The notes under the pieces were generated by a model that saw only the letters and a program-made list of their open reading frames with translations, was not told the origin of the DNA and made no database searches. Below, piece by piece: positions 3,780 to 59,683 of a stretch of 64,000 bases of DNA; position 1 is the stretch's first letter; every line of letters begins with the position of its first letter. The DNA lies in assembly GCA_046590235.1 (NCBI GenBank), contig JBKJTY010000035.1, positions 14,722 through 78,721 on the forward strand, given 5' to 3'. The stretch comes from Candidatus Magasanikiibacteriota bacterium (lineage in GTDB: Bacteria > Patescibacteriota > Patescibacteriia > Magasanikbacterales > GWA2-37-8). The translations under genes and the position numbers were made by a program.

Positions 3780-3780
3780 T

Positions 3781-32630: not shown

Positions 32631-32984
32631 TTACATCGTCGGAGTTGTCGTGTCGGTAGTAGTGTCAGCGAGGTCGCCAGTTGGCGGCTTCACTGATTTC
32701 GGGTTAGGGGAGTAGAGGGGGTTCTTAATCTTCCAGCGGTCAATGAATTGGCCGATGCCCTTCTTCGCCAACTTGTTCTTAACAGTCGTATGGCGCTGGG
32801 ACCATTTAACCAAACTTTCAAAATTAAGCTTATAACGACCGGAGACCACCACGTAGGTCACTTCCTGGGAAGCAATCGCACGGCGAATCGTCTGGTTGTT
32901 CACGCCAAAGAGGCGAGCCGCTTCAGAGACTGAAACGCGGATAATTTCCTTAGATTCTGGCTTATTTAGCGGGTCTTCGTTCAT
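32631..32984 (-). CDS. HTH DNA-binding protein (excisionase/MerR-like HTH_17) with a T-rich C-terminal tail
   Basis: VSEAARLFGVNNQTIRRAIA helix-turn-helix. The start is chosen at the internal Met; the ORF is open to 33008. Confidence 0.45.
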   Translation of the reverse strand: MNEDPLNKPESKEIIRVSVSEAARLFGVNNQTIRRAIASQEVTYVVVSGRYKLNFESLVKWSQRHTTVKNKLAKKGIGQFIDRWKIKNPLYSPNPKSVKPPTGDLADTTTDTTTPTM

Positions 32985-33271
32985 AGATGTATACAGTAGA
33001 CTACACAAATTATAGCACGATTTACCCCTTTTGTCAATGCCGGCTATAAGTAGTGCTACTCATTTGTCTACACTAGTGTATACAAAAAACATAATTTTTT
33101 ACAAGGTGAGACAGTCAAAAATGCGCTAAAGCTAGAGTAGAACGCCCGCTTCGGGTCTAAGGTTTGACCAAATCGACGTTTTATGGTACTATAATGCCTA
33201 TCCAAAGAGTGTCACAAAAGCTCTTTGAATGGTCAAAGTGTAACACTTTAAACCTTTTCACGTCTTCTAGG

Positions 33272-33817
33272 ATGCTAGAAAAAATCGCGGACAAACTACT
33301 GCTGTACCGGCTGCAAGTGAAACAGGATCCTGAAGCCTACGCTAAGCTATACGATGCTTATGTTAAACAAATCTACCGGTTTGTTTATTTTAAGGTTTCG
33401 TCGCATGAAGAGGCGGAGGACATCACTTCAGAAGTGTTTTTGAAAGCGTGGCACTATATACAAGAAAAAAAGGAAATTAAGAGTTTCAGTGGTTTGCTCT
33501 ACCGCATAGCGCGTAACGCAATCATTGATTTATATCGGTCGAAAGCGACCAAGCCAGAGTCACGCCTAAATGAAGATGTAGAAGTGGGGGATGGTGGTAA
33601 ATGGTTTGCGGACATCAACACGAAAGTGGAGAGTCACCGCGTGATCGAAGCGATAAAAAAATTAAAACAAGAATACCAAGAGGTTTTGACCTTCCGGTAT
33701 GTCGATGAACTTGAAACGGGTGAGATTGCAGAAATTCTAGGAAAGAGCAACCTGACAGTCCGGGTGACGCTCCATCGAGCGGTTTCTAAATTAAAAATGT
33801 TACTAGAAAGTAAATAG
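33272..33817 (+). CDS. ECF-type sigma-70 family RNA polymerase sigma factor
   Basis: Region 2 (YRFVYFKVSSHEEAEDITSEVFLKAW) and region 4 (LTFRYVDELETGEIAEILGKSNLTVRVTLHRAVSKLK); 181 aa from the internal Met. Confidence 0.7.
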   Translation: MLEKIADKLLLYRLQVKQDPEAYAKLYDAYVKQIYRFVYFKVSSHEEAEDITSEVFLKAWHYIQEKKEIKSFSGLLYRIARNAIIDLYRSKATKPESRLNEDVEVGDGGKWFADINTKVESHRVIEAIKKLKQEYQEVLTFRYVDELETGEIAEILGKSNLTVRVTLHRAVSKLKMLLESK

Positions 33818-33831: not shown

Positions 33832-35190
33832 ATGAGTAAGGACATTGTCCGACAACTCAAACAGTTAAAACATGACACGGTTAACCCACGAAGTGAGTGG
33901 GTTGCAACAAACCGTGCTCTTTTGCTTTCTCAGATTAAAAACACGCTTCCAGTAGAACCGGTCATCTCGACTGAGAAAAAGCTGGAAAAAATATGGGCAG
34001 CAATGGCTATTTTCTTACCTCGCCCTTTAGTGTATAATGTAGTTCGTCCAATCGGTGTCCTGTTACTCGTCAGTTTTGTAGCTACTAGTGCTTACTCAAG
34101 TACAGTGAAAGCTTCGTACGAGACTTTGCCAGGTGATTGGCTTTATCCAGCTAAACGCACAGCAGAACGTGCACAAGGAGCAGTAATCTCGCTCTTGGGT
34201 GACCAGAATACTGAAACAAAGTTTCATGTCAGTCTGGCACAACGTCGCGCTTCGGAAGTTAAGCAAATCATTGCCATAAACGATCCGGCAAAAGTTGCAA
34301 ACGTTGGCACAACGGTAGCCGAGCTCAAAAACGAATTGAATTCAATCAATACAAAGCTCGAACCCGGATTAAACACGATGCATGCGGATACTGCGAAAGA
34401 AGTAAAACAAAACACTGAAGCGATTAAAGATACGCTCCAGGATGTCAAAAATACTTTGTTACTCAGCTCATCAAGCACCAATAAAACATTGTTGCAGGTA
34501 GGAGAAACAAAAGATTTGGCTAAAGATATTTCAGTGAATGCCATGGAAGCCATGGTAGTAAAACATCTTGAAGGCGACAACACAGTCTCAAGACAAGATG
34601 TTAAAAATGCTCTTGATACTTCAATTGCTAATGTAGCAGTCGACGTACTCGCTTCCAAACAAACAGTTGATGGTGCGAAGACAATCGTAGACAGTGTCAA
34701 AACGCAAGTTACTGATTTAACAGGTGAAATAACAAAACAAAAAACTGAAAGTTCGCTCGCAACAACAACGCAAGCGTATAATCAGAAGTTAACCGATGCG
34801 GCTTCGCAAACAAAAGAAGCTTCCATCCAGACCGATCAAGTAACGGCAGCGGTTGATAAAAAAATCGATGAGGTGCGACAAGCGGTTAGTGATGATAATC
34901 TGACAAAAGCAATCGATAATCTCAAAGAAGCAAGTGAAGCAACAAAACAAGCTGAAAAAATTTCTGACACAACCATTTACACAACGCAGGCGGTACTCCC
35001 GATTGTACAGGTTATAAAAGATGCAACTGCGCTGGCTACCATTATCACTTCTTCCACTTTAAATGTATCGACTACAAAAGATATATTTTCTCTGGCTAGT
35101 ACGTCGCTCATGAGTCCGTTACTTAATGCGCCGATCAGTACTAGTACAAAGATGGTAAGTGAAAGTGTAAGTTCTACCGTTAAAAGATAA
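33832..35190 (+). CDS. putative anti-sigma factor / membrane-anchored coiled-coil protein
   Basis: One TM segment after ~60 aa, the motif ETLPGDWLYPAKR, and a long T/K/Q-rich helical region. It lies immediately downstream of the ECF sigma factor. Confidence 0.4.
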   Translation: MSKDIVRQLKQLKHDTVNPRSEWVATNRALLLSQIKNTLPVEPVISTEKKLEKIWAAMAIFLPRPLVYNVVRPIGVLLLVSFVATSAYSSTVKASYETLPGDWLYPAKRTAERAQGAVISLLGDQNTETKFHVSLAQRRASEVKQIIAINDPAKVANVGTTVAELKNELNSINTKLEPGLNTMHADTAKEVKQNTEAIKDTLQDVKNTLLLSSSSTNKTLLQVGETKDLAKDISVNAMEAMVVKHLEGDNTVSRQDVKNALDTSIANVAVDVLASKQTVDGAKTIVDSVKTQVTDLTGEITKQKTESSLATTTQAYNQKLTDAASQTKEASIQTDQVTAAVDKKIDEVRQAVSDDNLTKAIDNLKEASEATKQAEKISDTTIYTTQAVLPIVQVIKDATALATIITSSTLNVSTTKDIFSLASTSLMSPLLNAPISTSTKMVSESVSSTVKR

Positions 35191-35411
35191 CTACATAAGC
35201 TCATCTCTCTCGATGCATGCTCCTCGACATTCAGGATCAGCCACGGAGAGAGATGGTTTAAGTAAATCAAGTTAGGCTTAAAAGTCGATGATCACATAAG
35301 TGATTTGCCTAGCTATTAAGTCCTTTCTGTCGAAAGATGGAAAGCAACTCTCGTACGCTGACACTCTTTACTGAGTCGCGCAGTTAGTACAGAGTCTATT
35401 TATTATAAATT

Positions 35412-38400
35412 ATGTCGAACGTATTAAAAGTAGGTAAAAAAGTACTTACAGTTGGTACAGTCATGAGCACTATGCTCTGGTCTGTCGGCGTAGCAGCATT
35501 GTTGCCAGTGGCAGCTTCAGCAGCTACTTGCCCAGCATTCAAGTCAGGCGACTTGTTAAAGGTAACTGGTAAACCAGCTATCTACGCTGTTGATTCCAAC
35601 GGTAAGGTTCTCTATTTCCCATCTGGCGATGAATTCAAAAGTTGGAATGTAGACGAAAAATACAGTGGTTACACAACTGTTTCTCAGGAATGTTACGACG
35701 CAATGCCAGTGCCTTCAGCATCACCATTCGGCGTTAACTACCGCGCAGGTTCAAACATCGTAAAACGCTCATCTTCTGATCAGCTTTACGTTGTTCAACC
35801 AGGCAACAAATTGGCAAAGATCACTGTAGATGCTGCTAAAGCTCTCTATGGTACATCTTTCAAAACAATGACTGTTGCTGATGTTTTCTGGCCAAACTAC
35901 TCCGCTAACCGCGGTGCAGATGTGACAGAAGCTAAAGCACACCCAGGTATGCTCGTCTCAAACGGCGGCAAAACTTGGTACGTTGATGCAGACGCTAAGT
36001 TGTGGGAAGTAACCGCAGCTGGTATGTCAGCAAACCGCTTCAAGGCTGCTTTTGTCCGCCCAGTAGCTGCTTCTGCAGTTGCAGGTTTGGTATCTGGTGG
36101 TGTTCTTGATGCATACAACGCAATGGTTGCAGACCGCACTCAAACTGGTGGTGGTTCTGCAGTTGTCCCAGGCACAGTTGTAACAGGTGGAGCTTTGACA
36201 GTCTCATTGGCTGCAAGTAACCCAGCTGGCAACAACTTGGCTTCTGGTTCAGCTTTCAACCAAGTTCTTAAATTGAACTTGTCTGCAGGTTCCCAGGACG
36301 TTTCTGTTACAGGCTTAACATTCCGCAAGAGTGGTTTTGCTGCTAACACAGTAATCAGTGGTCTCGATATCATCGATTCCTCTGGTACACGTCATGGCAA
36401 TGTTGCTTCCTCTGTTAACGCTGATAACGATGTCACTTTGCTTTTTGCAGGTGCTCCTATCACTGTTAAAGCAGGTACAACTGAAACTGCTACTCTCCGC
36501 ATTAACTTGGGAAGTACAGCTACAGCTGGTACACTTTCATTTAGTCTCTTGAACGCAAGTTCAGTCACATCTAACGGTTCCGTTGGTGGTTCCTTCCCTG
36601 TAGCTGGTAACGTATTTACCCTACAAAATGCTGGTAACTCCTTAGGTTCTGTTACTTTGGACGAAGCTGCAATCAGTGGTGCTAATGGCACAACATTAAA
36701 TGTTGATCCAAACAACCAGCAAGAAATTGCTAAATTCTCTTTCGCTGCTGGTAGTAATGAAGCTGTTAAACTCGGCAAATTGACTCTTTACAACAATGGT
36801 ACAGCTAGTGACAGTGATGTCATGGATGTGCAATTGGTTGCACAAGATGGTTCCGTTCTCGCTACTGCTCAGCAGGTTAACAAGAACGTTAACTTCGATT
36901 TGTCTGCAAACCCTTACTTGATCGACAAAGGTCAAACTAAGAGTTTGACTGTTCGCGCTAAAATCGTGAACGGCGCAGCTCGCACAATCCAATTCGTTGT
37001 TTACAACGACTACGATGCAGTGTTGACAGGTGTAAGTACAGGTACAAGTATCCTTTCAGTTGCAGGTGCTACTGACACTTCATTCCCAATCGGCAATGCA
37101 GGTGCTACTTACAACCAAGTAATAGTTGGTAGTGGTTCTATTTCCTTCAACAAGGATTCTAGCTCACCATCTGCTTCTGTTGCTCCAAACACAAGCGGCG
37201 TTGTTTTAGCAAAATACTTTGCTAAACCAACTGGCGAAAGTATGGAATTGCGCAAAATCGCTCTCGGCTTGGTAACAAGTACAGCTCAGGACATGTTCTC
37301 TGGATCCTTCACGGTGAGAGTTAACGGTGCTGCTGTATACAGTGGTTCACCAGACGCGGTTGTTAACCATGCTACTGTTTTGACTTCTATCACACTTTCA
37401 ACATACCCAACGTTGATTGCTGGTCAGAACAACTACATCACAGTTGAAGCTAACATCGATTCACAAGCTACAGGCGGTGCAACAAACATCGTCTACATGG
37501 ATTTGACTGAAGTTAAACGTTTGGTAACAAACGACATCACAGATCCAGGTGTTGGTATCTCACAAGCTAACCAAATTACAGTTCAGGCTGCTGCATTGAA
37601 AGTAACCACATTGGCTACTCCAGTTGCACAGTCAATCGTAGTTGGTACAAGCAACTTCATCTTAGCTCAATTCGAATTGAATCCTTCTTCCGTATCATCT
37701 GGTGAAGATGTACGCGTAAGTAAGATCATCGTTTCTGACGTTAAGACTGGTAGTGCAGCTTATACTGATATCTCCAACTTAGTTCTCTACGATCAGAATG
37801 GCAATGCTATTGCTACTTCTGCAAGTACTGCAACTAACGCAGCTTCTACAACATTCACATTTGCTAACGCTCTAGTAATCCCTAAGACGGGTTCTGTTCT
37901 GTTGACATTGAAGGGTGACGTAGTTGCTCGCGCAGGTTCAGGCACACACACATTCTCAGTAGTTAACGCTGCTGAAGTAACAGTTACAGGCAAGGATACA
38001 GGTAACTCTGTAACTCCATCTGTCGGAAACGGCAGTGGTCAAGCTATGACTGTTGCTACATCTGGCACACTCAACTTATCATTGGTATCTGGCACAAACG
38101 GTGCTCCTTCCAGTGACCAGGTTGTTACTGTTGGTCAGACTAATGTTCCAGTCTTTGCTTTCAAATTAACTGCACAGAACGAGCCAATCAAAGTTACAAC
38201 TTTGAAACTCACTGCTACAGGTACTTTGAACACAGTAAACGACTTGTCAAACATCAAGTTGTACCGCAACAATGAAACCACTCCATTTGCTTCTGCAAAT
38301 CAGATGGCTTCCAGCTCTGCAATCACAAACACTTCAACAGTGTTCACATGGACTGCAACTGACAACTTGCTTGCTGAAGCTGTTCAACCAGGCACATCCG

Positions 38401-39116
38401 TTACTATCTATGTCAAAGCTGACATCGGTATTGCTAACCAGGCTGTCCTCGGTGATAGTTTCCGCTTCGCAATCTTGGATGCTTCCACTGATCTTGTAGC
38501 AAAAGGTGCTTCAAGCGGTGCTTCAGCATCAGTTGCTGGTACTGCAGCTGTTGTAGGCAAAACCTACATCACTCCATTTAGTGTCAGTGTCACTGCAGAT
38601 GCTCCAACAGCAGGCAGTAGTGTTACACAAGCTATCTTGGCTGGTACACAGCTCGCTCGTATTAAGCTCACAAACAATGGTAGTGCTAAGGTCACTATTA
38701 CTGGCATCAAATTCACTAACAGTGGATCAACTGCTGGTACAACAAGTACCTTCAAACTTTGGTACTCTGACCAGAACTCTACTAACTATCTTGGTACTGT
38801 AGCTTCAAGTACAATGGGCTTCACAAACACATTGTCAAACATCGACTTTAGTAGCTTGGCAACAGCTGGTTCAACCTTCACTATTGATGGTGGTACTAGT
38901 CGCTATGTTACAGTAACAGTCGCTGCTTTAGGTGGTTCTTCTACATCTGGTGATACTTACCAGTTGTCTATCGCTTCAGTTGGCGATATCACCTATACTG
39001 CACAGGAAACCGATCTTGGTTACGACTCAAACAACACTGGCGGCGCTCTTTCAGGTGCTTCCAACACATTGTTTGCAGAAGGCAAACCAAGTATGGGCAC
39101 ATTGGTTAAACAATAA
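35412..39116 (+). CDS. giant secreted repetitive surface protein (S-layer-like), 1234 aa
   Basis: Signal peptide. Extremely S/T/A/G/V-rich with ~100-aa periodic beta-rich modules (..LTLKGDVVARAGSGTHTFSV.., ..IKLTNNGSAKVTITGIKFTNSG..). Strongly biased codon usage (gct/ggt/act/tct/gtt), about 220 nt of 5' leader, and a strong terminator. Confidence 0.55.
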   Translation: MSNVLKVGKKVLTVGTVMSTMLWSVGVAALLPVAASAATCPAFKSGDLLKVTGKPAIYAVDSNGKVLYFPSGDEFKSWNVDEKYSGYTTVSQECYDAMPVPSASPFGVNYRAGSNIVKRSSSDQLYVVQPGNKLAKITVDAAKALYGTSFKTMTVADVFWPNYSANRGADVTEAKAHPGMLVSNGGKTWYVDADAKLWEVTAAGMSANRFKAAFVRPVAASAVAGLVSGGVLDAYNAMVADRTQTGGGSAVVPGTVVTGGALTVSLAASNPAGNNLASGSAFNQVLKLNLSAGSQDVSVTGLTFRKSGFAANTVISGLDIIDSSGTRHGNVASSVNADNDVTLLFAGAPITVKAGTTETATLRINLGSTATAGTLSFSLLNASSVTSNGSVGGSFPVAGNVFTLQNAGNSLGSVTLDEAAISGANGTTLNVDPNNQQEIAKFSFAAGSNEAVKLGKLTLYNNGTASDSDVMDVQLVAQDGSVLATAQQVNKNVNFDLSANPYLIDKGQTKSLTVRAKIVNGAARTIQFVVYNDYDAVLTGVSTGTSILSVAGATDTSFPIGNAGATYNQVIVGSGSISFNKDSSSPSASVAPNTSGVVLAKYFAKPTGESMELRKIALGLVTSTAQDMFSGSFTVRVNGAAVYSGSPDAVVNHATVLTSITLSTYPTLIAGQNNYITVEANIDSQATGGATNIVYMDLTEVKRLVTNDITDPGVGISQANQITVQAAALKVTTLATPVAQSIVVGTSNFILAQFELNPSSVSSGEDVRVSKIIVSDVKTGSAAYTDISNLVLYDQNGNAIATSASTATNAASTTFTFANALVIPKTGSVLLTLKGDVVARAGSGTHTFSVVNAAEVTVTGKDTGNSVTPSVGNGSGQAMTVATSGTLNLSLVSGTNGAPSSDQVVTVGQTNVPVFAFKLTAQNEPIKVTTLKLTATGTLNTVNDLSNIKLYRNNETTPFASANQMASSSAITNTSTVFTWTATDNLLAEAVQPGTSVTIYVKADIGIANQAVLGDSFRFAILDASTDLVAKGASSGASASVAGTAAVVGKTYITPFSVSVTADAPTAGSSVTQAILAGTQLARIKLTNNGSAKVTITGIKFTNSGSTAGTTSTFKLWYSDQNSTNYLGTVASSTMGFTNTLSNIDFSSLATAGSTFTIDGGTSRYVTVTVAALGGSSTSGDTYQLSIASVGDITYTAQETDLGYDSNNTGGALSGASNTLFAEGKPSMGTLVKQ

Positions 39117-39166
39117 TCAATTAGCCTAACTAAGGTAACGTTTTCACAACGTAATAAAGTGACTAA

Positions 39167-39199
39167 ACACCCCCGATTATATCGGGGGTGTTTTTGTTT
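39167..39199 (+). terminator. rho-independent terminator after the S-layer-like gene
   Basis: ACACCCCCGAT-tat-ATCGGGGGTGTttttgtttt. Confidence 0.6.
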
Positions 39200-39248
39200 T
39201 ATGATGATTGACTTTTGAAGGTCTTTCCTCTAAACTATAGGAGTAATT

Positions 39249-41321
39249 TTGCTTAACTTTACTATGCGTGAAACTATTGAAAAAGTCATTCGTCTGCTAC
39301 TCTACTGCACATTTTTTGTTCCATTAGTGGTCATGCCGACATCATTTATTTTTCCGTTTATCGTTCCAAAGATTATATTGTTTAGAACCATTGTAATCTG
39401 TATGGGCGCAGGGTACACCATGCTACTCTTTAGTAGTTGGAAAAATTATGCGCCGCGTCTCACCCCGGTTACAGGTGCTCTCTTGGCTTTTTTACTCAGC
39501 TTTACCATTTCAACCTTTGTTGGCATAGACACTTATCACAGTTTTTGGGACAATCATGAACGCATGCTTGGTCTATTTACGATTGCCCATTACGTTCTAT
39601 ACTATTTTGTTCTCAGCGCTGTTTTGAAAACATGGTCGGATTGGAAAACTGCTTGTAAATTATTTTTAATTGCCGGCTCACTTGTCATGTTTGTTGGTTT
39701 AATTCAAGCTGCAAACCCGTATTTCTTGTTAAATGGCGGCAGTGACCGTGTGGCAAGTACGCTTGGCAACTCAATCTACGTCGGGGCATACGGTCTATTT
39801 TTGATCTTTTTAAGCGTACTGATATTTTTGCGTGAAAGCGATGTATTATGGAAGTGGATTACAGTAGTAACTACCTTTTTAGCTTTTTGCGGCATTCTCT
39901 TTAGTGGAACTCGTGGTGCAATTCTTGGCTTAATGGCTGGGATTTTGACCGCAGTTGTGCTCTACATCGTATGTTTAAAGGACCATCTCCGAACAAGAAA
40001 AATGCTAACGGGGATTATTGCGGCCGGCGTAATTATAACTGGAGTAATGTATGTAAACCGCACAAGCGAATTTGTTCTTAACATTCCAGCTGTCAGCCGT
40101 GTACTTAACACTTCAGTTGAGAGTGTTAAGAATAGTCCTCGCGCTTACGCGTGGAAAGCAGCTGTTGAGAGTTGGAAAGATAAACCAGTATTTGGTTGGG
40201 GTCCAAACAATTTTTACTACGCCTTTAATGAAAATTACAATCCGCACACGTTACGTTTTGGCTATGGTGAAACATGGTTTGATAATGCGCATAACATTAT
40301 TCTAAATACCTTAGCAGTCCAAGGCATGTTTGGGGTTATTAGCTACTTAGCGATATTTTGTGCCGGGGTGGTTATGCTAAATCGCGCCCATAAACAGCAG
40401 CGAATTAATATACATCTGTTTGTTGTTGGTACAGCTTTTCTAGTGGCGCATTTAATCCAAAATATTACCGTTTTTGAAAATCCAACATCATACCTATATT
40501 TTATGTTCTGGTTAGCGATGATCAATCGTATGACCCAGGTAGTAGAAACTGTTGATGTAAAAAGCAGTAAACCATTTAAAATTGTTAAAACATTTCATGT
40601 TGTCGTTGTTGGTGGTTTTGCCTTGATAGCAAACCTCATATTCAACTTTGAACCTGCTTCTGCAAACATGCAAACGTTAGCAACTATTCAGGCAATGAGT
40701 TCAGATCCAATTCGTGCTTTACCAGCAATCCAAGACACACTCAATAGAAACTCACCGCATATCGATGATATAAGAAACGATGTTGGTAGACAATTAATTG
40801 ATATCGTAGCAAATAACCATGAAAAGTTGGGCAAAGACAGAAGTATGCAACTTTTATTGGTTGCAGATGAAGCTTTACAGAAAAATTTGGTGTTACACCC
40901 GCGTGATATTCGAATTCATTTATTGATTGCTCAGCTTGATCAAACCGCTCTCCAGATAACCAACCAGCCACAATTCTTAATAGCAGCCGAAGAGTATACG
41001 CAAAAAGCGCTTTTGGAATCACCTCGACGTCAACAAGTAATCTATAGTTTGGCTAATATAAAGTTACAATTAGGTAAAAATGATGAAGCTATCGCCTTGC
41101 TACGAGGGGCGCTCAGTGATGATTCGACGATCGCTGAAACGTATTGGCGGCTAATGGTTGCCGAGAAAATGGCAAACCATGAAGATAAAGTTAAAGAAGT
41201 GTACTCGTTAGCTCAGCAAAACAAGATCACTTTTACTGCGGAAGAACAACAGATCGTTAACCGTGTTTTACTAGCTCCTCCTCCTACACCAGCAGCTGAT
41301 GTAAAGAAAGGTGTAAAATAA
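39249..41321 (+). CDS. O-antigen ligase/Wzy_C-family membrane protein with a C-terminal TPR-like domain (possible O-oligosaccharyltransferase)
   Basis: About 12 TM segments; motif LFSGTRGAILGLMAG typical of the WaaL/PglL family; C-terminal ~250 aa is a soluble helical-repeat region. Confidence 0.55.
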   Translation: MLNFTMRETIEKVIRLLLYCTFFVPLVVMPTSFIFPFIVPKIILFRTIVICMGAGYTMLLFSSWKNYAPRLTPVTGALLAFLLSFTISTFVGIDTYHSFWDNHERMLGLFTIAHYVLYYFVLSAVLKTWSDWKTACKLFLIAGSLVMFVGLIQAANPYFLLNGGSDRVASTLGNSIYVGAYGLFLIFLSVLIFLRESDVLWKWITVVTTFLAFCGILFSGTRGAILGLMAGILTAVVLYIVCLKDHLRTRKMLTGIIAAGVIITGVMYVNRTSEFVLNIPAVSRVLNTSVESVKNSPRAYAWKAAVESWKDKPVFGWGPNNFYYAFNENYNPHTLRFGYGETWFDNAHNIILNTLAVQGMFGVISYLAIFCAGVVMLNRAHKQQRINIHLFVVGTAFLVAHLIQNITVFENPTSYLYFMFWLAMINRMTQVVETVDVKSSKPFKIVKTFHVVVVGGFALIANLIFNFEPASANMQTLATIQAMSSDPIRALPAIQDTLNRNSPHIDDIRNDVGRQLIDIVANNHEKLGKDRSMQLLLVADEALQKNLVLHPRDIRIHLLIAQLDQTALQITNQPQFLIAAEEYTQKALLESPRRQQVIYSLANIKLQLGKNDEAIALLRGALSDDSTIAETYWRLMVAEKMANHEDKVKEVYSLAQQNKITFTAEEQQIVNRVLLAPPPTPAADVKKGVK

Positions 41322-41323
41322 GT

Positions 41324-42046
41324 ATGGTAAGGCCTACCTATTCAGTTGTCATACCAGTGTACAATGAAGAAAAGAGAATTCCGATTAACATCGATGCGAT
41401 TTTCTCTTTTTTTGCTGATGTAGGCAGTTCGGTAGAAATTATTTTTGTAAATGACGGGTCAAAAGACGCTACAGCAAGTGTATTGTCAGAATACCAGAAA
41501 AAATACTTTTTCACGGTAATCAACTATTCAATTAACCGTGGAAAAGGTTACGCTATCCGGGAAGGTGTAAAAAATGCAACAGGGGATTGGGTCGTATTTT
41601 TTGATATCGATCTTGCCACTCCGCTGCAAGAATTTATAAAGCTTATACAATTAAAAACAGATACCGACAATATCATCATTGGCAGTAGAAGAGTAGAGGG
41701 GGCACACATCAAAAAAAGTGAATCAAAGTTGCGGACATTTTTAGGGCAAGGATTTACTAAAATTTCGAACATACTTGTTCCAAATATTGCCGACTTTACT
41801 TGTGGATTTAAATGCTTCTCTCGACAAGCAGCGTTAACAATCTTTAGTCGAGCTCGAATCGATCGGTGGGGGTTCGATACGGAATTATTGTATATAGCTT
41901 ATCTCCATAAAATAGCTATCAAACAAATTCCTGTAGCTTGGTCGCACGATAATAATTCAAAAGTAAGAGTAATTAACGCTATCTTTAGCTCAATTAAAGA
42001 GTTGACGCAGATGAAGATAAACCAATTAAAGGGTTTGTATAAATAA
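41324..42046 (+). CDS. GT2 polyprenol-phosphate sugar synthase (DPM1/GtrB-like)
   Basis: YSVVIPVYNEEKRI, FVNDGSKDAT, FFDIDLATP (DxD). Confidence 0.65.
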   Translation: MVRPTYSVVIPVYNEEKRIPINIDAIFSFFADVGSSVEIIFVNDGSKDATASVLSEYQKKYFFTVINYSINRGKGYAIREGVKNATGDWVVFFDIDLATPLQEFIKLIQLKTDTDNIIIGSRRVEGAHIKKSESKLRTFLGQGFTKISNILVPNIADFTCGFKCFSRQAALTIFSRARIDRWGFDTELLYIAYLHKIAIKQIPVAWSHDNNSKVRVINAIFSSIKELTQMKINQLKGLYK

Positions 42047-42047
42047 T

Positions 42048-42776
42048 ATGGAATTACACGAATACGCAAAAATGGATGCCATAGAAAAGGATCACTGGTG
42101 GTTTGTTGCCAAACGAAAGTTTTTAAGCGTGCTTGTTAGCAATTATGCGGGGGGCGATAAGAAAATGCTCGATATCGGTTGTGGCAGCGGGGCAGTGCTC
42201 GATTTTTTTAAAGCGAAAGGGTATCAAGCGGAGGGTGTCGATATGAGCGAAGCAGCTTTAGAATATTGTGATAAAAAAGGTTTGTCTGTAAAGCAGGGAA
42301 GAGCTGAAGAGTTACTGTATAGTGATAATTCTTTTGATATTATTATAGCTTCTGATGTCTTAGAGCATATTGATGATACGACGAGTGTGCTTAAGGAAAT
42401 TAAAAGAATTTTAAAACCAGGAGGTATATTTATCGTGACTGTGCCGGCTCACCAGTTCTTGTTTTCACAGCACGACATTGCCCTTCATCACGTCCGCCGT
42501 TATAGCAAAAAACTATTAGCACAAAGTTTACAAACGTATTTTTCGGTTGAATGGATCGGGTGGTTGCATGCAGCAATACTTCCGCTTGCCGTGATTGCTC
42601 GTTTGACACGCCGGTTTATTCCGAGCAAAAAAGATTCGGATGTCGGTGAATCAAGTAGGTTTGTTAATGCTATTATGAAAAAAATATATGCATTAGAATT
42701 TTTTTGGTTTAAACATTTGCATTTACCATGTGGATTGTCATTGGGTGCGGTAGTCAAAAAGGCTAAAAAAATTTAG
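42048..42776 (+). CDS. class I SAM-dependent methyltransferase
   Basis: Motif I LDIGCGSGAVL; post-I acidic residue. Confidence 0.6.
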   Translation: MELHEYAKMDAIEKDHWWFVAKRKFLSVLVSNYAGGDKKMLDIGCGSGAVLDFFKAKGYQAEGVDMSEAALEYCDKKGLSVKQGRAEELLYSDNSFDIIIASDVLEHIDDTTSVLKEIKRILKPGGIFIVTVPAHQFLFSQHDIALHHVRRYSKKLLAQSLQTYFSVEWIGWLHAAILPLAVIARLTRRFIPSKKDSDVGESSRFVNAIMKKIYALEFFWFKHLHLPCGLSLGAVVKKAKKI

Positions 42777-42783
42777 GCTGCAT

Positions 42784-44304
42784 ATGTATTTTATCAAAAA
42801 GAACGCAATTATTTTAAGCGGAGTTAGTTGGTTGCTTGTGGCTTTTTTTTCAGTAATTCGGTATGCCGCTATTTTTAACTATAAGTGTTACTTTCTAACT
42901 AATTCATTTTTGTGCCGTACGGAGATTACAAGTAGTGAAAAAGTAATGCTTTTTTTACTTATTACAACTTTCATAGTAGGTGCGATTATTGGGGGGTATG
43001 GAATATGGAAGAGGTATACTGCTGGAGAAAAAGTCTTGCCGTATGAAGGTAAAAAAGCGTACGCTCTTGTGGCCAGCTTTGTGCTGCTAGCGTCGCTGAC
43101 TATTCCGTTTGGTTCAGGGGATTTTTCATATTACTTTAATACTGGGAAAGCTTTTTATCAAAATCAAAACCCATTTGTTGATGAGCGGAACATCGAGCAA
43201 CCCTTTGTAGGTCATGGTAAAGTGTCATCCCTGACCGGATTTACGTATGGGCCGTTAGCCGGGCTGGTCTTTGAAAGGTTTTACGCGTTTAGCCACGATA
43301 GTCAAATTTATTTCATAACTCTTTGGAGACTGTTTATTATCCTCATTACTCTAGCTTGTTGCGGTACAATTGTTAAAATTATCCGCTTGCTTGGTTCAAA
43401 AGCTGAATACGCTAATTGCGCACTAGTATTACTTTTGCAACCGCTCTTTTTATTTGAAGTCATAGTTAATTGTCACTTTGACTTACTGTGGTTATTATTT
43501 GTATTACTGGCGCTATGGGCTGCTATCTTAAAGCGCTGGTGGCTCGTTATTCCGCTGCTTAGTATTGGGATATGGCTCAAATTTATACCGTTACTTTTGA
43601 TCCCATTCTTTGCGTTGTGGTGGTGGCAAGAACTCACAATGGTTAATTGGAAAAAAAGAGTAACAGAAATCGCTCTTAGTAGTTTAGTTGCTGCAATTAT
43701 AACTGTAGTAGCTTGGTGGCCGCTATGGGAAGGTTTTCGTGTGTTTGACTCCTTTATGCTTCAGACAAAATGGGCGGCAAACAGCATCTTCGCAGCTCTC
43801 TACTATTCATTAAAACCAAGCTTTGTTTGGTTATTACAGGATAAGGCCCACTGGTTTTTGACCAGACTCTTGCAAGGCTCGCTTATTATGTTTGGAACAT
43901 ACTTACTACTACCATATATAAAAAAAGTCTTCGCGGTAATTCGGAAAAAAGAACATTTAGCGCCATATGAATATGTGCAAATGATGTTCATTTCTCTTGT
44001 AGTGTATTCCTCACTGATTCAAAAGTCATTTTGGCCCTGGTACATTATTTGGTTGTTACCGTTTGGGGTCATAGTCTATGAAAAAACAAAAAACGTTTTG
44101 TTGGGGCAGCTATTAACATGGTTGAGTCTGGCACCATTAAGTTTCTATCCCATTTGGCAACTTAATTGGGCAATCTTTAAGACAGACGCTGCTGCAACTA
44201 CTTGGTTTTGGTGGGTCCTTTTCATACTAATTTGGGTTTACCCACTTTCAAGATTGATTAAAATGAGAAAAAGTAATTTTGAACAACCAATCGACTCTAT
44301 TTAA
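42784..44304 (+). CDS. polytopic membrane protein, putative GT-C fold glycosyltransferase
   Basis: 506 aa with about 12 TM segments; positioned downstream of the DPM1-like synthase. Confidence 0.35.
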   Translation: MYFIKKNAIILSGVSWLLVAFFSVIRYAAIFNYKCYFLTNSFLCRTEITSSEKVMLFLLITTFIVGAIIGGYGIWKRYTAGEKVLPYEGKKAYALVASFVLLASLTIPFGSGDFSYYFNTGKAFYQNQNPFVDERNIEQPFVGHGKVSSLTGFTYGPLAGLVFERFYAFSHDSQIYFITLWRLFIILITLACCGTIVKIIRLLGSKAEYANCALVLLLQPLFLFEVIVNCHFDLLWLLFVLLALWAAILKRWWLVIPLLSIGIWLKFIPLLLIPFFALWWWQELTMVNWKKRVTEIALSSLVAAIITVVAWWPLWEGFRVFDSFMLQTKWAANSIFAALYYSLKPSFVWLLQDKAHWFLTRLLQGSLIMFGTYLLLPYIKKVFAVIRKKEHLAPYEYVQMMFISLVVYSSLIQKSFWPWYIIWLLPFGVIVYEKTKNVLLGQLLTWLSLAPLSFYPIWQLNWAIFKTDAAATTWFWWVLFILIWVYPLSRLIKMRKSNFEQPIDSI

Positions 44305-44313: not shown

Positions 44314-45348
44314 ATGAATCAAAATACACCTAAAAAAGCACTTATCACTGGTATTACTGGGCAAGACGGCTCCTATCTTGCTGAGTTTTTATTAGAAAAG
44401 GGGTATGAAGTACACGGGATTATTCGTCGCTCAAGTAGTTTTAATACTGGACGCATTGACCATCTTTTTAAGGATCGACATGAAAAGAATGTTCGCCTCC
44501 ATCTTCATTATGGAGATTTAACTGATGGTACTAACTTAGAACGCATTCTTGCGAACGTGAAACCTGATGAAATTTATAACCTTGGTGCGCAGAGTCATGT
44601 AAAGGTTAGTTTTGAGATGCCAATCTATACAGCTGAAGCTGATGGCCTGGGAACAATACGCTTACTCGATGCAATTAAAGAATCTAAGTTGCCAATAAAA
44701 TTTTACCAGGCTGGTTCATCTGAAATGTTTGGTAAAGTTCTGGAAGTTCCACAGCGTGAAACTACGCCGTTTTATCCACGTAGCCCGTATGGGTGTGCCA
44801 AGGTGTTTTCTCATCATATTGCTGTAAATTATAGAGAAGCGTACAATATGTTTGTCTGTAACGGCATATTGTTTAACCATGAATCACCTCGTCGAGGTCA
44901 AACATTTGTTACTAAAAAGGTCACTAAGGGTTTAGCAAACATCAAGCTCGGCAAACAAGACGTGGTGTATGTTGGTAATCTAAATGCTAAACGCGACTGG
45001 GGTTTTGCCAAAGATTATGTTGAAGTGATGTGGCTTATGCTGCAGCAAGACAAGCCGGATGATTACGTTGTTGCAACAGGAGAAACACATAGCGTGCGGG
45101 AAATGATTGAAGTTGCTGGCAGTTATCTTGGTTTTACAATTACTTGGAAAGGTGAAGGTTTAGATGAAGTTGGTATTGATGCAAAAACCGGTAAGACAAT
45201 TATTAAAATTGATCCAGAATATTTCCGTCCGTCCGAAGTCGATCTGTTAATTGGTGATGCTACTAAAGCTAAGCAAAAATTAGGCTGGGAGCCAAAAGTT
45301 GGCTTTAAAGAGTTGATCAAAATTATGTGCGAAGCTGACCTCGTCTAA
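44314..45348 (+). CDS. gmd: GDP-mannose 4,6-dehydratase
   Basis: [43 protein letters not shown]. Confidence 0.85.
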
Positions 45349-45365
45349 GAGAACTAATTACTTAT

Positions 45366-46535
45366 ATGATAAAACTTATCAAATCATCGTTTTATAACGA
45401 AAAAAAAACTAAACGTGCTTTAATAAGCTTTATAAAAAAAGCCAAGATTTTTAGCATGAACGATGAATGTGCCCGTTATGAGATTGAATTTGCTAAGAAA
45501 CAGCAACGTAAACATGCGGTATTTGTCAGTAGTGGCAGTATGGCAAATTTGGTTGTATTACAAGCTTTGTTAAATCGTGGTGATCTAAAGGTGGGGGATA
45601 ATGTAGGCGTCTCTGCTCTAACATGGGCCACTAATATCATGCCAATCATACAATTGGGCTTGAAGCCGGTTATAATGGATTGTAGTATAGAAAACCTTAA
45701 TGTCACCGCAGAAACGGTTATTGAAACATTAAAAAAATATAAACTTAAAGCTTTTTTTATCACGCATGTCCTAGGATTCTGTGCTGATATTGCTAAGATT
45801 AAAAAAATCTGTGATCAGGAAAAAATTATTCTTCTCGAAGATACGTGTGAGTCGCTTGGGTCAAAAGCAGAAGGAAAACTACTGGGGAACTTTGGTTTAG
45901 CCAGTACTTTTTCCAGCTTTGTCGGCCACCACTTTTCAACTATTGAAGGTGGAATGATCTGCACTGACGATTCAGAATTGCATGAGTATTTAGTAATGGC
46001 ACGTGCGCATGGTTGGGATAGGAATCTTACTCCAAAACAGCAGGCAGCTTGGAGAAAAAAATACAACATAGACGAGTTCTATTCTAAATACACCTTTTAT
46101 GATCTAGCTTATAACGCCCGTCCAACTGAAATCCAAGGTTTCATAGGTAAAACAACTATTGGCTATTGGAATACAATCGTTAAAAAACGTGAAGGACATT
46201 TTAAAAAACTACATAAAGCAACACTGGAAAACCCAGACATACTTCCGTTGAAGGTGGGTCATATGGATGTTGTGTCTAATTTTGCTATGCCGGTTGTTTT
46301 CAAAAGCAAAGAGCTTTGGAAGTTGTATCGTACCCGTTTTGAAAAAGCTAAAGTGGAGATCAGACCTATTATCGCTGGTAATATGTCAAAACAACCCTTT
46401 TTCACCAAGCGTGTAGCGAAAGGACAATCTTGCCCGGGGGCTGCGTTTGCTCACGAGAACGGCTTCTACTTTGGTAATAATCCAGAGTTAACCAAGAAAG
46501 AAGTGCAACAGCTCTGTACATTGCTTAAAAAATAA
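45366..46535 (+). CDS. DegT/DnrJ/EryC1-family PLP enzyme with His-His replacing the Schiff-base Lys (ColD-like GDP-4-keto-6-deoxymannose 3-dehydratase)
   Basis: FSSFVGHHFSTIEGG at the position where aminotransferases carry SxxxK. Confidence 0.55.
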   Translation: MIKLIKSSFYNEKKTKRALISFIKKAKIFSMNDECARYEIEFAKKQQRKHAVFVSSGSMANLVVLQALLNRGDLKVGDNVGVSALTWATNIMPIIQLGLKPVIMDCSIENLNVTAETVIETLKKYKLKAFFITHVLGFCADIAKIKKICDQEKIILLEDTCESLGSKAEGKLLGNFGLASTFSSFVGHHFSTIEGGMICTDDSELHEYLVMARAHGWDRNLTPKQQAAWRKKYNIDEFYSKYTFYDLAYNARPTEIQGFIGKTTIGYWNTIVKKREGHFKKLHKATLENPDILPLKVGHMDVVSNFAMPVVFKSKELWKLYRTRFEKAKVEIRPIIAGNMSKQPFFTKRVAKGQSCPGAAFAHENGFYFGNNPELTKKEVQQLCTLLKK

Positions 46536-46537
46536 TT

Positions 46538-47491
46538 ATGGAAAAACAAGCAAAAATTTACGTCGCTGGTCATAAGGGGTTGGTTGGTTCAGCAATTAAA
46601 CGTGCGTTGGAACGCGAGGGTTATACCTCGATAATTGTGAGAACGCATCAAGAATTAGATCTATTGGATCAGCATGCCGTTGAAGAATTTTTTAGCCACG
46701 AACAGCCGGTGTATGTTTTTTTAGCGGCAGCAAAAGTTGGCGGAATAGTCGCTAACATGGCTGCGCCAGCTTCGTTTATCTATGAAAATGTTCAGATTCA
46801 GAATAGCATCATACACGCTTCCTATAAGCATGGTGTTAAAAAACTATTATTCTTAGGTACTTCATGTATCTATCCGCGCGTATGTCCGCAACCAATGAAA
46901 GAAGAGTATCTATTAACAGGTCCTCTTGAGCCGACTAACGAAGCATACGCATTAGCCAAAATTACAGGCATTAAAATGTGCCAGTATTATGACGTGCAGT
47001 ACCAGACAGACTTTGTTGCCGTCATGCCACCTAATATCTACGGCTACAATGATACCTTCGATTTACAGCGCTCTCATGTCATTCCAGCGTTGATCCGTCG
47101 TTTCCATGAAGCCAAGGTCGCAAATAGCCCAACAGTGACCCTGTGGGGAACGGGTACTGCCCGCCGAGAATTCTTATTTGCCGATGATGTGGCAGAAGCC
47201 TGTTTGTTTTTTATGGATAACTTTAAGCCGTCTGAGGAGCAGGTTAAAAAAGGTGAGATATTCATGAATGTAGCGGCTGGAACGGACCAAACCATCGCCG
47301 AGCTTGCCAAAGTGGTCGCGTCAGCGGTAGGGTATACGGGCACGATTGCCTGGGATACTACCAAGCCTGATGGTATGCCTCAAAAGCTGCTTGATACCAC
47401 TAAAATGACAACTCTGGGTTGGCGGCAAAAAACGAGCTTAGAAAAGGGTGTCGCCCTGACATATCAATGGTATTTAGAAAATCAGCCTTAA
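46538..47491 (+). CDS. fcl: GDP-L-fucose synthase-like epimerase/reductase (Fcl/ColC-like)
   Basis: KIYVAGHKGLVGSAIKR, an SDR Rossmann fold, 317 aa. Confidence 0.75.
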   Translation: MEKQAKIYVAGHKGLVGSAIKRALEREGYTSIIVRTHQELDLLDQHAVEEFFSHEQPVYVFLAAAKVGGIVANMAAPASFIYENVQIQNSIIHASYKHGVKKLLFLGTSCIYPRVCPQPMKEEYLLTGPLEPTNEAYALAKITGIKMCQYYDVQYQTDFVAVMPPNIYGYNDTFDLQRSHVIPALIRRFHEAKVANSPTVTLWGTGTARREFLFADDVAEACLFFMDNFKPSEEQVKKGEIFMNVAAGTDQTIAELAKVVASAVGYTGTIAWDTTKPDGMPQKLLDTTKMTTLGWRQKTSLEKGVALTYQWYLENQP

Positions 47492-47498: not shown

Positions 47499-48314
47499 AT
47501 GGAAACCATAATTCGACCAAGAAAAAAAATTACGCTACGGGATTTTACTGAGTTAGTTCAGTATCGTGAATTATTGTATTTTTTCACCTGGCGTGATGTT
47601 AAAGTCAGGTATAAACAAACCATGCTTGGTGTAATGTGGGCTATTTTTCAACCCGTCATCACCATGGTAGTGTTTACCATCTTCTTTGGTAAATTAGCAA
47701 AAATTCCTTCAGATAATATCCCTTATCCAATTTTTGTGTATGTCGGCTTGCTTATTTGGCAATTTTTCTCCACATCACTCAATGAAACAAGTGATTGTCT
47801 GGTACAAAATAAAGCCATTATTACCAAAGTCTACTTTCCACGCTTATTGTTGCCATTTTCTTCAGTCATTACAAAGTTTGTAGATTTTTTCATCGCTTCG
47901 TTAGTCTTAATCGTATTAATGGCTTACTATCATTACTTACCTAATATTTTAGGATTATTTATCTTGCCACTCCTATTGTTTATCTCATTTTTAGCAGCAT
48001 CCGGCGCAGGTTTACTCTTGGCTTCAATCAATGTAAAATACCGCGATGTCAGATATATTTTGCCTTTCTTTATTCAGCTATTACTCTTCATGACTCCTGT
48101 CATTTACCCAGCGAGTATAGCGGGTAAATATTCGTGGATATTGGCGCTTAACCCTATGACTGGTGTAATTAAGGCGGCACATGCGGCTATTTTGGGCAAC
48201 GCACCTATAAATTGGGTGTTGCTTGGTATTTCAGGCATAATTTCAGCTATCCTGTTTGTGGTAGGAATACTCTACTTTAAAAAGACCGAACGTTACTTTG
48301 CAGATATCGTATAA
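47499..48314 (+). CDS. wzm: ABC-2 type polysaccharide export permease (Wzm/TagG-like)
   Basis: ELLYFFTWRDVKVRYKQTMLGVMWAIFQP; 6 TM segments. Confidence 0.75.
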   Translation: METIIRPRKKITLRDFTELVQYRELLYFFTWRDVKVRYKQTMLGVMWAIFQPVITMVVFTIFFGKLAKIPSDNIPYPIFVYVGLLIWQFFSTSLNETSDCLVQNKAIITKVYFPRLLLPFSSVITKFVDFFIASLVLIVLMAYYHYLPNILGLFILPLLLFISFLAASGAGLLLASINVKYRDVRYILPFFIQLLLFMTPVIYPASIAGKYSWILALNPMTGVIKAAHAAILGNAPINWVLLGISGIISAILFVVGILYFKKTERYFADIV

Positions 48315-48318
48315 ACCT

Positions 48319-49611: not shown

Positions 49612-49625
49612 CTATAAAGAAGGAT

Positions 49626-50507
49626 ATGGTTATAATGCAGTTACTCGGTGGTTTAGGAAATCAGATGTTTCAGTATGCGGCAGGAAAAGCACTGGCAACC
49701 CATCATAAAACAGAATTTAAAATTGATACGAGCGGATTTAAAGAGTACGCCTTGCATGATTATGTACTGGATCATTTTATGATAACAGCGGGGGAAGTTA
49801 GTGAGAGTGAGTTACCCTCTGTTAAAGAACGTGCACTGCCCACATCCCGAATATGGCGAAAGTTATATCCGTATGTGCAAGCTTTACGGCCATACCATTC
49901 AAGACGCATTTTTGACGAACCATATTATCACTTTAATAAGCGTTTTTTAAAGCTACCGCCAAATGTTTATATCCGTGGTTATTTTCAAAGTGAACGTTAT
50001 TTTAAAGATATTGAAGATATTATCCGCAAAGAATTTGTAGTAAAACAAGAATATGGCCAGCTGGATCAGTTTTTGGCTGAAAAGCTAAAAACGCATGATG
50101 TAATTTCAGTTCACTTTAGACGCGGTGATTATGTTACCAATAAAGGTATAAACAAATTGTATGGTACGCCGTCATTTGAGTACTATGAAAAATCCATCCA
50201 GCAAATTGCCGCACGCTGCAAAAATCCGTATCTATTTATTTTCTCAAACGACAGCGCGTGGGTTAAAGAAAACTTTACCACACAAGTTCCAAAAACATTT
50301 ATTAGTGATTTCTCAATGAGTAATTTTCAAGAGCTCACTTTAATGTCAAAGTGTCACCACAACGTCATTGCTAATAGTAGTTTTAGTTGGTGGGGTGCGT
50401 GGCTTAATCAAAATCCGTCAAAAATAGTTCACGCGCCATCTCGATGGTTTGTAACTAAAAGGTGGAATACGAAAGATGTTATTCCAAAAAATTGGACGCA
50501 AGTATGA
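49626..50507 (+). CDS. GT11 alpha-1,2-fucosyl(colitosyl)transferase-like glycosyltransferase
   Basis: GT11 motif I LLGGLGNQMFQYAAGKALA. Alternative starts are at 49590 and 49635. Confidence 0.65.
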   Translation: MVIMQLLGGLGNQMFQYAAGKALATHHKTEFKIDTSGFKEYALHDYVLDHFMITAGEVSESELPSVKERALPTSRIWRKLYPYVQALRPYHSRRIFDEPYYHFNKRFLKLPPNVYIRGYFQSERYFKDIEDIIRKEFVVKQEYGQLDQFLAEKLKTHDVISVHFRRGDYVTNKGINKLYGTPSFEYYEKSIQQIAARCKNPYLFIFSNDSAWVKENFTTQVPKTFISDFSMSNFQELTLMSKCHHNVIANSSFSWWGAWLNQNPSKIVHAPSRWFVTKRWNTKDVIPKNWTQV

Positions 50508-51520: not shown

Positions 51521-51532
51521 TCGTAGAATAAT

Positions 51533-52309: not shown

Positions 52310-52319
52310 CTTAAAGTTT

Positions 52320-53294: not shown

Positions 53295-53296
53295 CT

Positions 53297-54025: not shown

Positions 54026-54027
54026 AT

Positions 54028-54792: not shown

Positions 54793-54803
54793 AAGCATTT
54801 ATT

Positions 54804-56126: not shown

Positions 56127-56181
56127 GCTTATGTATTGAACCAAAGTTATTTACATATATGATCTTGATAACAACAAAAAA

Positions 56182-57504: not shown

Positions 57505-57525
57505 AAATAATATTGTATTCTAGCT

Positions 57526-58542: not shown

Positions 58543-58546
58543 TACT

Positions 58547-59143: not shown

Positions 59144-59146
59144 TAC

Positions 59147-59653: not shown

Positions 59654-59683
59654 CCCTCTGGATGAGCCTGGAAGGTTTAAACT

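Follow-up and report, generated by a model that had tools for sequence, protein, structure and literature searches.

A gene for a secreted protein of 1,234 amino acids (aa) stands in front of a glycan operon in a Candidatus Magasanikiibacteriota bacterium (contig JBKJTY010000035.1; the whole 64,000-nt stretch analysed is called the window), and the locus raises the question of whether the glycan ends up on the protein. An initial annotation had taken the arrangement for a surface-layer (S-layer)-like protein to which a glycan exported by an ABC transporter is transferred en bloc, as in the S-layer glycosylation (slg) loci of Firmicutes. Bacteria of the Candidate Phyla Radiation (CPR, Patescibacteria) make up a large share of all bacterial lineages, yet next to nothing is known of how their envelope, the structure in contact with the host cell, is put together. 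The open reading frames (ORFs) of the window were scored against Pfam and NCBIfam, and 76 related loci were fetched and their ORFs scored by phmmer, 49 of which contained a full-length homolog of the 1,234-aa protein; synteny was counted upstream in the 42 loci with at least 3.2 kb 5' of the protein gene and downstream in the 44 loci with at least 3 kb 3' of it. All ORFs of the initial annotation were found in place, and from 33.2 kb to the window end all large ORFs lie on the plus strand (Table 1). An ABC-transporter-dependent glycan that is decorated by GT-C-type glycosyltransferases and ligated outside the cell by an outward-facing transferase with a Wzy_C domain and tetratricopeptide repeats (Wzy_C-TPR) is well supported, and the adjacent 1,234-aa protein as its acceptor is the best single hypothesis, which we hold tentatively, at a little short of an even chance.

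The 1,234-aa protein very probably is a major wall-anchored surface protein. As first described, it begins with a signal peptide, which reads as Sec-type (K-rich n-region, hydrophobic core, ASA/A at residue 37), and it is rich in Ala, Val, Gly and Asn, with few charged residues and only two cysteines. Ser and Thr together account for 23% of its residues, about 1.7 times the window background of 13.5%, an enrichment rather than the extreme richness reported initially. A DNA tandem-repeat search and a BLAST self-comparison were both empty; Smith-Waterman self-comparison gave offsets of about 157, 317, 472 and 790 residues, and profile-profile self-comparison with the 62-sequence family alignment recovered the repeats at 90–98% probability. 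The periodic modules recorded earlier thus exist, with a period other than the ~100 aa proposed: six tandem units of ~157 aa start at about mature residues 222, 376, 538, 694, 847 and 1016. In an AlphaFold2 (AF2) model computed with the family alignment (pLDDT 88.9), an alpha/beta domain made of three beta-beta-beta-alpha repeats (mature residues 1–215) is followed by a short linker and an all-beta array, in agreement with the beta-sandwich repeats suspected at the outset. The modelled repeats are cohesin-like, and their best structural matches are adhesin-type immunoglobulin (Ig)/cohesin arrays (PrgB, AgI/II, CLIPPER and Bap domains). Pfam and NCBIfam scans of the protein, even at E <= 10, gave nothing useful, the sole match being BNR_assoc_N at 0.037.

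Codon bias within the window is strongest in this gene (effective number of codons, ENC, 36.3 versus 44.1–56.3 for the 36 other genes), with GCT, GGT, CCA, AAC, ATC, TTC and TAC favoured, a pattern (C-ending codons plus GCT/GGT/CCA) of the translational-selection type. In 24 of the 42 related loci the surface-protein gene likewise has the lowest ENC (median 42.4 versus 49.8), so that the bias described initially is real; it suggests high expression. The closest homologs stand at 71% (L006) and 63% (L007, a Magasanikbacteria RIFCSPLOWO2 genome), and length is strikingly constant, mostly ~1,190–1,300 aa among the full-length homologs listed and ~1,220–1,260 aa when at least 120 listed homologs are considered. 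S-layers have been reported for some CPR members (PMC13293708), and predicted Patescibacteria S-layer proteins fall into the same size class (1131–1274 aa; bioRxiv 10.1101/2024.05.28.596244); the published candidate lists hold no Magasanikbacteria entry. In Paceibacteria, the secreted proteins with the highest expression carry a peptidoglycan-binding domain together with an Ig-like fold (PMC10936435). A signal peptide, a wall-binding end (putative in the window protein) and a beta-sandwich array are common to them, to the Patescibacteria candidates and to the window protein, high expression being shown by transcriptomics in Paceibacteria and suggested by codon bias here. The S-layer label is reasonable but unproven, and that the protein forms a lattice is something we infer.

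Its attachment to the wall would be provided by the 207-aa terminal module. Searched alone against 1.84 billion representatives, the module gave 874 protein matches, 287 of them at E <= 1e-10, in carriers of 200–3,159 aa. Its place is always terminal, either next to the signal peptide or at the very C-terminal end, and FN3-rich, Calx-like and beta-helix proteins are among the carriers of the fetched genomes. In one homolog of the surface protein (P0026), PG_binding_1 takes the place of the module in front of the same repeat array, which is the way SLH and CWB2 anchor modules behave. Because of its terminal position, its 874 carriers and this exchange, the module appears to act like an anchor. 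No known anchor family matched it in Pfam scans, and we regard it as a candidate for a new cell-wall-binding domain of CPR bacteria.

The glycan operon opens with the Wzy_C-TPR enzyme, whose probable start is an ATG 15 nt inside the ORF because the database record has 685 aa. As anticipated from the initial annotation, the protein matches Pfam Wzy_C above the gathering threshold (79.9 bits versus a cutoff of 31.7, E 2.2e-22, residues 208–367) and carries a C-terminal TPR domain. More than 712 close members of the family exist at ~50% identity, named at most 'O-antigen ligase family'. A PDB search with the single sequence matched only TPR proteins; a profile of 30 orthologs and paralogs revealed the ligase WaaL (7tpg, E 1.6e-12) and an oligosaccharyltransferase (9rmk, E 6.2e-12) at ~50 bits each. 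With both structures the enzyme has in common the Wzy_C domain, a large outer loop after transmembrane segment (TM) 9 and an Arg/Arg/His set (R222, R298 and H348, invariant in 30 sequences and aligned with 7tpg and 9rmk). According to hydropathy and the positive-inside rule, nine TM, the outer loop (residues 267–349) and a further four TM are arranged N-in/C-out, so that the 220-aa C-terminal TPR domain is predicted to face outward. This domain and the 13th TM are additions relative to WaaL and 9rmk, and with ~50 bits to both, Wzy_C-TPR is a separate subfamily. With the TPR profile (residues ~550–670), E-values of 2e-51 to consensus TPR proteins and of 1.7e-16 to the TPR of OGT were obtained, and the domain has invariant motifs of its own (PH.DD.R.D, H..D.R and P.RQQ). 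C-terminal TPR are also present on WsfB of Paenibacillus alvei and on PglL, and WsaB has a TPR partner (PMC2943079); the TPR motif or partner reported for WsfB, PglL and WsaA/WsaB thus has its equivalent in the window enzyme.

The next three genes form a module of a small soluble family 2 glycosyltransferase (GT2), a methyltransferase and a 506-aa membrane protein. The whole GT2 domain matches the NCBIfam models for PgfS (3e-20), ArnC (6e-18), PpgS (1e-10) and dolichyl-phosphate-hexose transferase (2e-9), with every score falling well short of the curated cutoff; the polyprenol-phosphate-sugar synthase named initially therefore stands as a candidate, with full-length matches to such synthases and scores under those cutoffs. 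The methyltransferase was assigned as before (Methyltransf_11). For the 506-aa protein, hmmscan against Pfam-A was empty even at E <= 10 and a profile found no PDB sequence match. Its AF2 model (pLDDT 89.6, pTM 0.91) gave PimE as the best Foldseek match in the PDB (9dm5, E 1.7e-4, TM-score 0.67), followed by 9wno, GPI-mannosyltransferase I (GPI-MT-I), ArnT, ALG9/12, EmbB, Pmt4 and AglB, and D113, invariant in 26 sequences, lies in the first outer loop, after TM3. By its modelled fold the protein is a GT-C, as the initial annotation had supposed. Unlike in our own hmmscan, PF26314 is precomputed in the database for this protein and its homologs P0121–P0153.

The donor of this GT-C would presumably be a polyprenyl-phosphate sugar, because the adjoining small GT2 is conserved in L007, L049 and L063. 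The order GT2–methyltransferase–GT-C recurs in L049 and L063 and at the end of the window, and is found without the methyltransferase in L007; since the second module of the window mirrors the first, the methyltransferase seems integral to both. In three-component extracytoplasmic glycosylation, a GtrB-type GT2 works with a GT-C, e.g. in Gtr, ArnC/ArnT, CsbB/YfhO and PgfS/PgfM. A small GT2 beside a GT-C is likewise found twice in the window, with the differences that both window modules carry a methyltransferase between the two, that no GtrA-type flippase was seen in the window and that the fold of the first GT-C comes nearest to PimE and GPI-mannosyltransferase I rather than to the Gtr or YfhO types. 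The natural interpretation of the GT2 and GT-C pair is extracytoplasmic decoration from a polyprenyl-phosphate sugar, not en-bloc transfer, a function that the initial annotation did not mention.

The nucleotide-sugar, glycosyltransferase and Wzm/Wzt genes predicted downstream were found as well, among them Gmd, an Fcl-like enzyme, and GHMP kinase, SIS and HAD proteins that together constitute a pathway of the GDP-D-glycero-D-manno-heptose type. Wzm and Wzt have TagH/Wzt-type NCBIfam matches (1e-59 and 2e-54), and Wzt carries a ~170-aa C-terminal extension for which a PDB sequence search gave no significant match. No LytR-CpsA-Psr (LCP), Wzx or polymerase-type Pfam family was present among the window ORFs scanned.

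In the mechanism that we favour, the 1,234-aa protein would be exported by Sec and, as an S-layer-type protein, would be the main secreted protein of the cell surface, with its 207-aa three-repeat module holding it on the wall and its six cohesin-like beta-sandwich modules projecting outward. On the cytoplasmic side of the membrane, the operon would assemble a glycan on undecaprenyl phosphate from GDP-sugar donors (6-deoxyhexose and heptose types), using GT2, GT4 and GT11 transferases and methylation, and Wzm/Wzt would export it. Outside the membrane, the two GT-C enzymes would decorate the glycan with polyprenyl-phosphate sugars supplied by the two small GT2s, and Wzy_C-TPR would transfer the lipid-linked glycan en bloc, most likely to Ser, Thr or Tyr of the neighbouring 1,234-aa protein, in the manner of WsaB and WsfB of Firmicutes.

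The closest known systems are the slg locus of Geobacillus stearothermophilus NRS 2004/3a (SgsE, WsaA-F, WsaP, Wzm/Wzt, WsaB) and its counterpart in Paenibacillus alvei (SpaA, WsfB). There, as in the window, a surface-protein gene stands beside nucleotide-sugar genes, glycosyltransferases, methyltransferase(s), Wzm/Wzt and a transferase of the Wzy_C family, and the cell in which the transferase works is of monoderm type and has no lipid A, which is also what we propose here. CPR cells are monoderm-like and, to our knowledge, have no lipopolysaccharide (LPS). The locus is the slg logic of Firmicutes in a CPR lineage, to which the protein family, the anchor module, the extra GT-C modules and the regulatory cassette are new. 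In contrast to the slg systems, the window protein lacks SLH and any other known anchor and does not resemble SgsE or SpaA, no WsaP-type initiating enzyme lies within the window, two GT2–methyltransferase–GT-C modules are added, and the HTH_17 gene, extracytoplasmic function (ECF) sigma factor, DUF5667 protein and structured RNA leader upstream are without counterpart. Families, folds, topology, codon bias and synteny are documented for the window system; glycosylation of the protein and a lattice are what we propose for it.

The linkage of protein and transferase recurs among relatives: a Wzy_C gene starts within 1.7 kb 3' of the protein's stop codon in 27 of the 44 related loci, and the glycan genes behind it differ from locus to locus. 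Gene content and this recurrent linkage sustain the slg-like arrangement of the initial annotation. Two Wzy_C genes were present in each of eleven loci (L020, L021, L023, L024, L027, L028, L029, L030, L033, L038 and L072). In such loci a divergent ~750-aa paralog (E 1e-34 to 1e-73 against the window enzyme) adjoins the protein gene and the ortholog lies 1–5 kb further on.

Several observations weigh against the favoured mechanism. Seventeen of the 44 related loci have no Wzy_C gene beside the protein gene; in a clade of ~40% identity none occurs within 10 kb and the ortholog lies elsewhere on the same contig (distant pairs of Wzy_C enzyme and surface protein: P0330 with P0048, P0311 with P0042, P0325 with P0052 and P0391 with P0039), and in a clade of 45% identity the ortholog follows a different protein of ~1,280 aa. 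Proteins with an adjacent Wzy_C gene were tested for a higher Ser plus Thr content, and they did not differ from those without one (22.6% versus 22.8%). A strong terminator and a new promoter candidate separate the protein gene from the glycan operon, and neither in the window nor in the related loci does the ECF promoter motif described below occur before the protein gene. No initiating phosphoglycosyl transferase (Bac_transf, Glycos_transf_4) was found among the window ORFs scanned; it may lie beyond the window, since the cluster runs off the window end. The protein has no sequence or fold match to any characterised S-layer family. Finally, profile comparison does not assign the Wzy_C enzyme to the protein-transferase branch over the ligase branch: 7tpg and 9rmk are about equally similar, so that sequence cannot decide between the two activities, and the PglL/WaaL-family placement made initially holds at the level of the Wzy_C superfamily. 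The ~1,280-aa protein mentioned above has 1,282–1,296 aa (L001, 18748–22638; L005, 11132–14980), carries an LTD domain in L005 and may be a second large surface protein.

The main alternative, a serious one if rather unlikely, is that the glycan becomes a glycopolymer anchored in the cell wall or the membrane, such as a lipoglycan or a secondary cell-wall polymer, which Wzy_C-TPR ligates onto a lipid or wall acceptor. Such a polymer may be the ligand of the 207-aa module, which would explain the gene linkage, as S-layer genes stand beside anchor-polymer loci in Firmicutes, and the hundreds of other module carriers would need a common wall ligand. The enzyme's equal nearness to the ligase WaaL, and a Ser plus Thr content that is independent of its adjacency, agree with this reading; moreover, Wzy_C orthologs are still ~50% identical where the surface protein has drifted to 30–40%, and are present even when not adjacent, both of which fit a core envelope function. 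On the other hand, when a monoderm exports a wall polymer through an ABC transporter, attachment is normally the task of LCP enzymes, a family missing from the window, and we know of no precedent for a Wzy_C enzyme attaching wall polymers in monoderms. In addition, strong variation of the glycan genes between loci would be unusual for the ligand of a conserved anchor, and TPR on Wzy_C enzymes go with protein O-oligosaccharyltransferases (PMC2943079), as transfer to the surface protein would have it. Even with a wall polymer as acceptor, the locus would show by what means these cells anchor their surface proteome.

Upstream, the protein gene belongs to a cassette (HTH_17 gene, ECF sigma factor gene, DUF5667 gene, big-protein gene) that is essentially invariant across the 49 related loci. 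The divergent HTH_17 gene and the sigma gene are present in 42 of 42 loci, and the DUF5667 gene, between sigma and the big gene, in 41 of 42. The HTH_17 gene is preceded by a consensus sigma70 promoter (33037–33009), and near-perfect palindromes of 20–24 nt (TTTGTATACACTAGTGTATACAAA) occur in one to three copies between the HTH_17 and sigma genes in related loci (L001–L035); the palindrome is presumably the operator of the HTH_17 protein. An ECF-type motif (TGTAACA-N15-17-CGTCT) occurs once per locus in 47 loci and in the window, always before the sigma gene, and a second, sigma70-like promoter lies at 33164–33192. The motif ends ~6 nt 5' of the sigma ATG, which suggests a leaderless and autoregulated sigma transcript; the promoter position and the homolog starts also place the sigma start at this ATG, not at the mechanically assigned TTG at 33164. 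With this correction, the ECF sigma factor and membrane protein reported initially upstream of the protein gene were borne out by Pfam matches, the DUF5667 protein being a putative anti-sigma factor or envelope sensor.

That the sigma factor regulates the protein gene, as was then proposed, agrees with the linkage (41–42 of 42 loci) and not with the position of its promoter motif. No sigma70-like site was found in 35191–35411, and among related loci there was no conserved -35-like box at a fixed distance 5' of the invariant GTCGA of the leader. Since no terminator was detected between the DUF5667 gene and the protein gene, sigma-dependent read-through into the latter is possible but unproven. 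The wiring that we infer for the cassette would run from the HTH_17 regulator through the autoregulated ECF sigma factor and the DUF5667 sensor or anti-sigma factor to the RNA leader, the protein gene and the terminator.

The leader of the protein gene is strongly structured (35191–35420, -71.2 kcal/mol, z = -4.96) and contains a conserved RNA element with an asymmetric, invariant bulge, A(A/G)GUCGA. When a covariance model was run over 1.33 Mb of related loci, 47 copies were found (46 related loci and the window), every one at the same position and strand. P2 is 94% paired with compensatory changes in 5 of 6 pairs; P1 has compensatory changes in 8 of 8 pairs, although a varying register lowers its pairing in the fitted alignment to 65%. 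The covariation score of 0.533 compares with 0.281 in shuffles (0 of 500 reach 0.533) and with at most 0.20 in slid controls. A known ribozyme or riboswitch was considered and rejected, as there was no Rfam match even at E <= 1; the element may stabilise the 5' end, mark a processing site or bind a protein. The leader RNA and the regulatory cassette are previously undescribed, and literature searches returned nothing on DUF5667, on CPR together with O-antigen ligase or on Magasanikbacteria together with S-layers.

The strict linkage to an ECF sigma factor and a membrane sensor would also suit a fibrillar adhesin or host-attachment protein that is induced through sigma and DUF5667 on contact or envelope stress and forms no lattice, a reading that we consider improbable. 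The best structural matches of the repeats (PrgB, AgI/II, CLIPPER and Bap domains) speak for it, as does the view that CPR bacteria are episymbionts (PMC10936435). However, the strong codon bias suggests constitutive high expression, repeat numbers of adhesins usually vary and the length of the homologs listed does not, and the ECF promoter was not found before the protein gene. That the adjacency is non-functional, a highly expressed surface-protein gene lying beside a variable surface-polysaccharide island, is highly improbable: the terminator and new promoter between the units, the 39% of loci in which adjacency is missing and the variable downstream gene content would fit, but adjacency in 27 of 44 loci, counted over species-level representatives and with orientation kept and the gap short, goes far beyond random placement in ~1-Mb genomes, and in many loci a divergent second Wzy_C paralog directly follows the protein gene.

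Carried to its full extent, the preferred reading, transfer of the glycan to the surface protein, would mean that Magasanikbacteria-like CPR build a glycosylated S-layer from an unrecognised family (new wall-anchor module plus six cohesin-like repeats), governed by an envelope-sensing circuit (HTH_17 repressor, leaderless autoregulated ECF sigma factor, DUF5667 sensor) and by an RNA leader with an invariant AAGGUCGA bulge, and that Wzy_C-TPR is the general protein O-oligosaccharyltransferase of the radiation; in this generality we think it unlikely. If true, the main surface protein of a major CPR class would have a molecular identity, and a wall-anchoring module would be recognised that hundreds of secreted proteins use. 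A candidate O-oligosaccharyltransferase that works in LPS-free cells and a compact regulatory cassette with a new cis-RNA would be gained as well.

Table 1. Features of the locus; positions are counted from the first nucleotide of the window, and functions are predicted.
Feature	Position	Strand	Evidence or remarks
HTH_17-type DNA-binding protein, divergent	32631..33008	-	Pfam HTH_17 E 3.5e-5
Palindrome TGTCTACACTAGTGTATACA	33065..33084	.	0 expected by chance; likely HTH_17 operator
ECF-type promoter TGTAACA-N15-CGTCT	33239..33265	+	One match in window, 0.01 expected
ECF sigma factor	33272..33817	+	Sigma70_r2 1.7e-14, r4_2 2.9e-13
Single-pass membrane protein with extracytoplasmic DUF5667	33832..35190	+	DUF5667 1.9e-8; TM at ~residues 65-92
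Structured 5' leader of surface-protein gene, four hairpins	35191..35411	+	221 nt
Conserved RNA element	35267..35322	+	P1 stem, bulge A(A/G)GUCGA, P2 with RUAN loop, P1' arm, UUGUA
Secreted surface protein, 1,234 aa	35412..39116	+	Signal peptide 1-37, terminal module 38-244, six ~157-aa repeats
Terminal module, mature residues 1-207	35523-36143	+	Three-repeat alpha/beta, two conserved Cys, unannotated
Intrinsic terminator after surface-protein gene	39165..39193	+	13-bp stem, 7 GC pairs, then TTGTTTTATG
Sigma70-like promoter candidate for glycan operon	39208..39236	+	TTGACT-17-TAAACT, consensus match only
Wzy_C (O-antigen-ligase superfamily) membrane enzyme with C-terminal TPR	39249..41321	+	Probable start 39264
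Soluble GT2, 240 aa; candidate polyprenyl-phosphate-sugar synthase	41324..42046	+	Glycos_transf_2 2e-28
S-adenosylmethionine-dependent methyltransferase	42048..42776	+	Methyltransf_11 4e-24; between GT2 and GT-C
GT-C-fold membrane glycosyltransferase, 506 aa	42784..44304	+	PimE / GPI-mannosyltransferase-like
GDP-sugar genes: Gmd, RfbH/ColD-like pyridoxal-phosphate enzyme, Fcl-like GDP-fucose/colitose synthase	44314..47491	+	
Wzm (ABC-2 permease) and Wzt (ATPase)	47499..49611	+	ABC2_membrane 6e-17, ABC_tran 3e-23
Glycosyltransferases GT11, three GT2, two GT4; GalE; NTP-transferase; methyltransferase; GHMP kinase, SIS and HAD; hexapeptide acyltransferase	49590..61305	+	
Second GT2-methyltransferase-GT-C (PMT_2) module	61308..64000	+	Last gene cut by window end

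Named sources of the homologs of the 1,234-aa protein were Magasanikbacteria, Parcubacteria, Patescibacteria or seemingly mislabelled third-party-annotation (TPA) assemblies, from which the window is placed in a Magasanikbacteria-like CPR bacterium. Many TPA_asm records of metagenome-assembled genomes with the CPR-specific cassette (L006, L009, L012–L015, L019–L024 and others) bear the title 'uncultured Gammaproteobacteria bacterium', and 'Candidatus Udaeobacter' stands on another; these are apparently taxonomic mislabels. Elsewhere in the window, other large secreted-looking proteins are encoded at 297–3374, 3387–4530 and 21934–24069, comprising a 1,025-aa Laminin_G_3 protein, two TSP3-repeat proteins and a 711-aa BNR/Sortilin and Big_5 protein with two PG_binding_1 domains. 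The GC content is 50% at 16001–18000 compared with ~41% generally, and the ORF at 19552–20412, which has no Pfam match, shows a third-position GC content (GC3) of 0.65 versus ~0.3–0.4 elsewhere.

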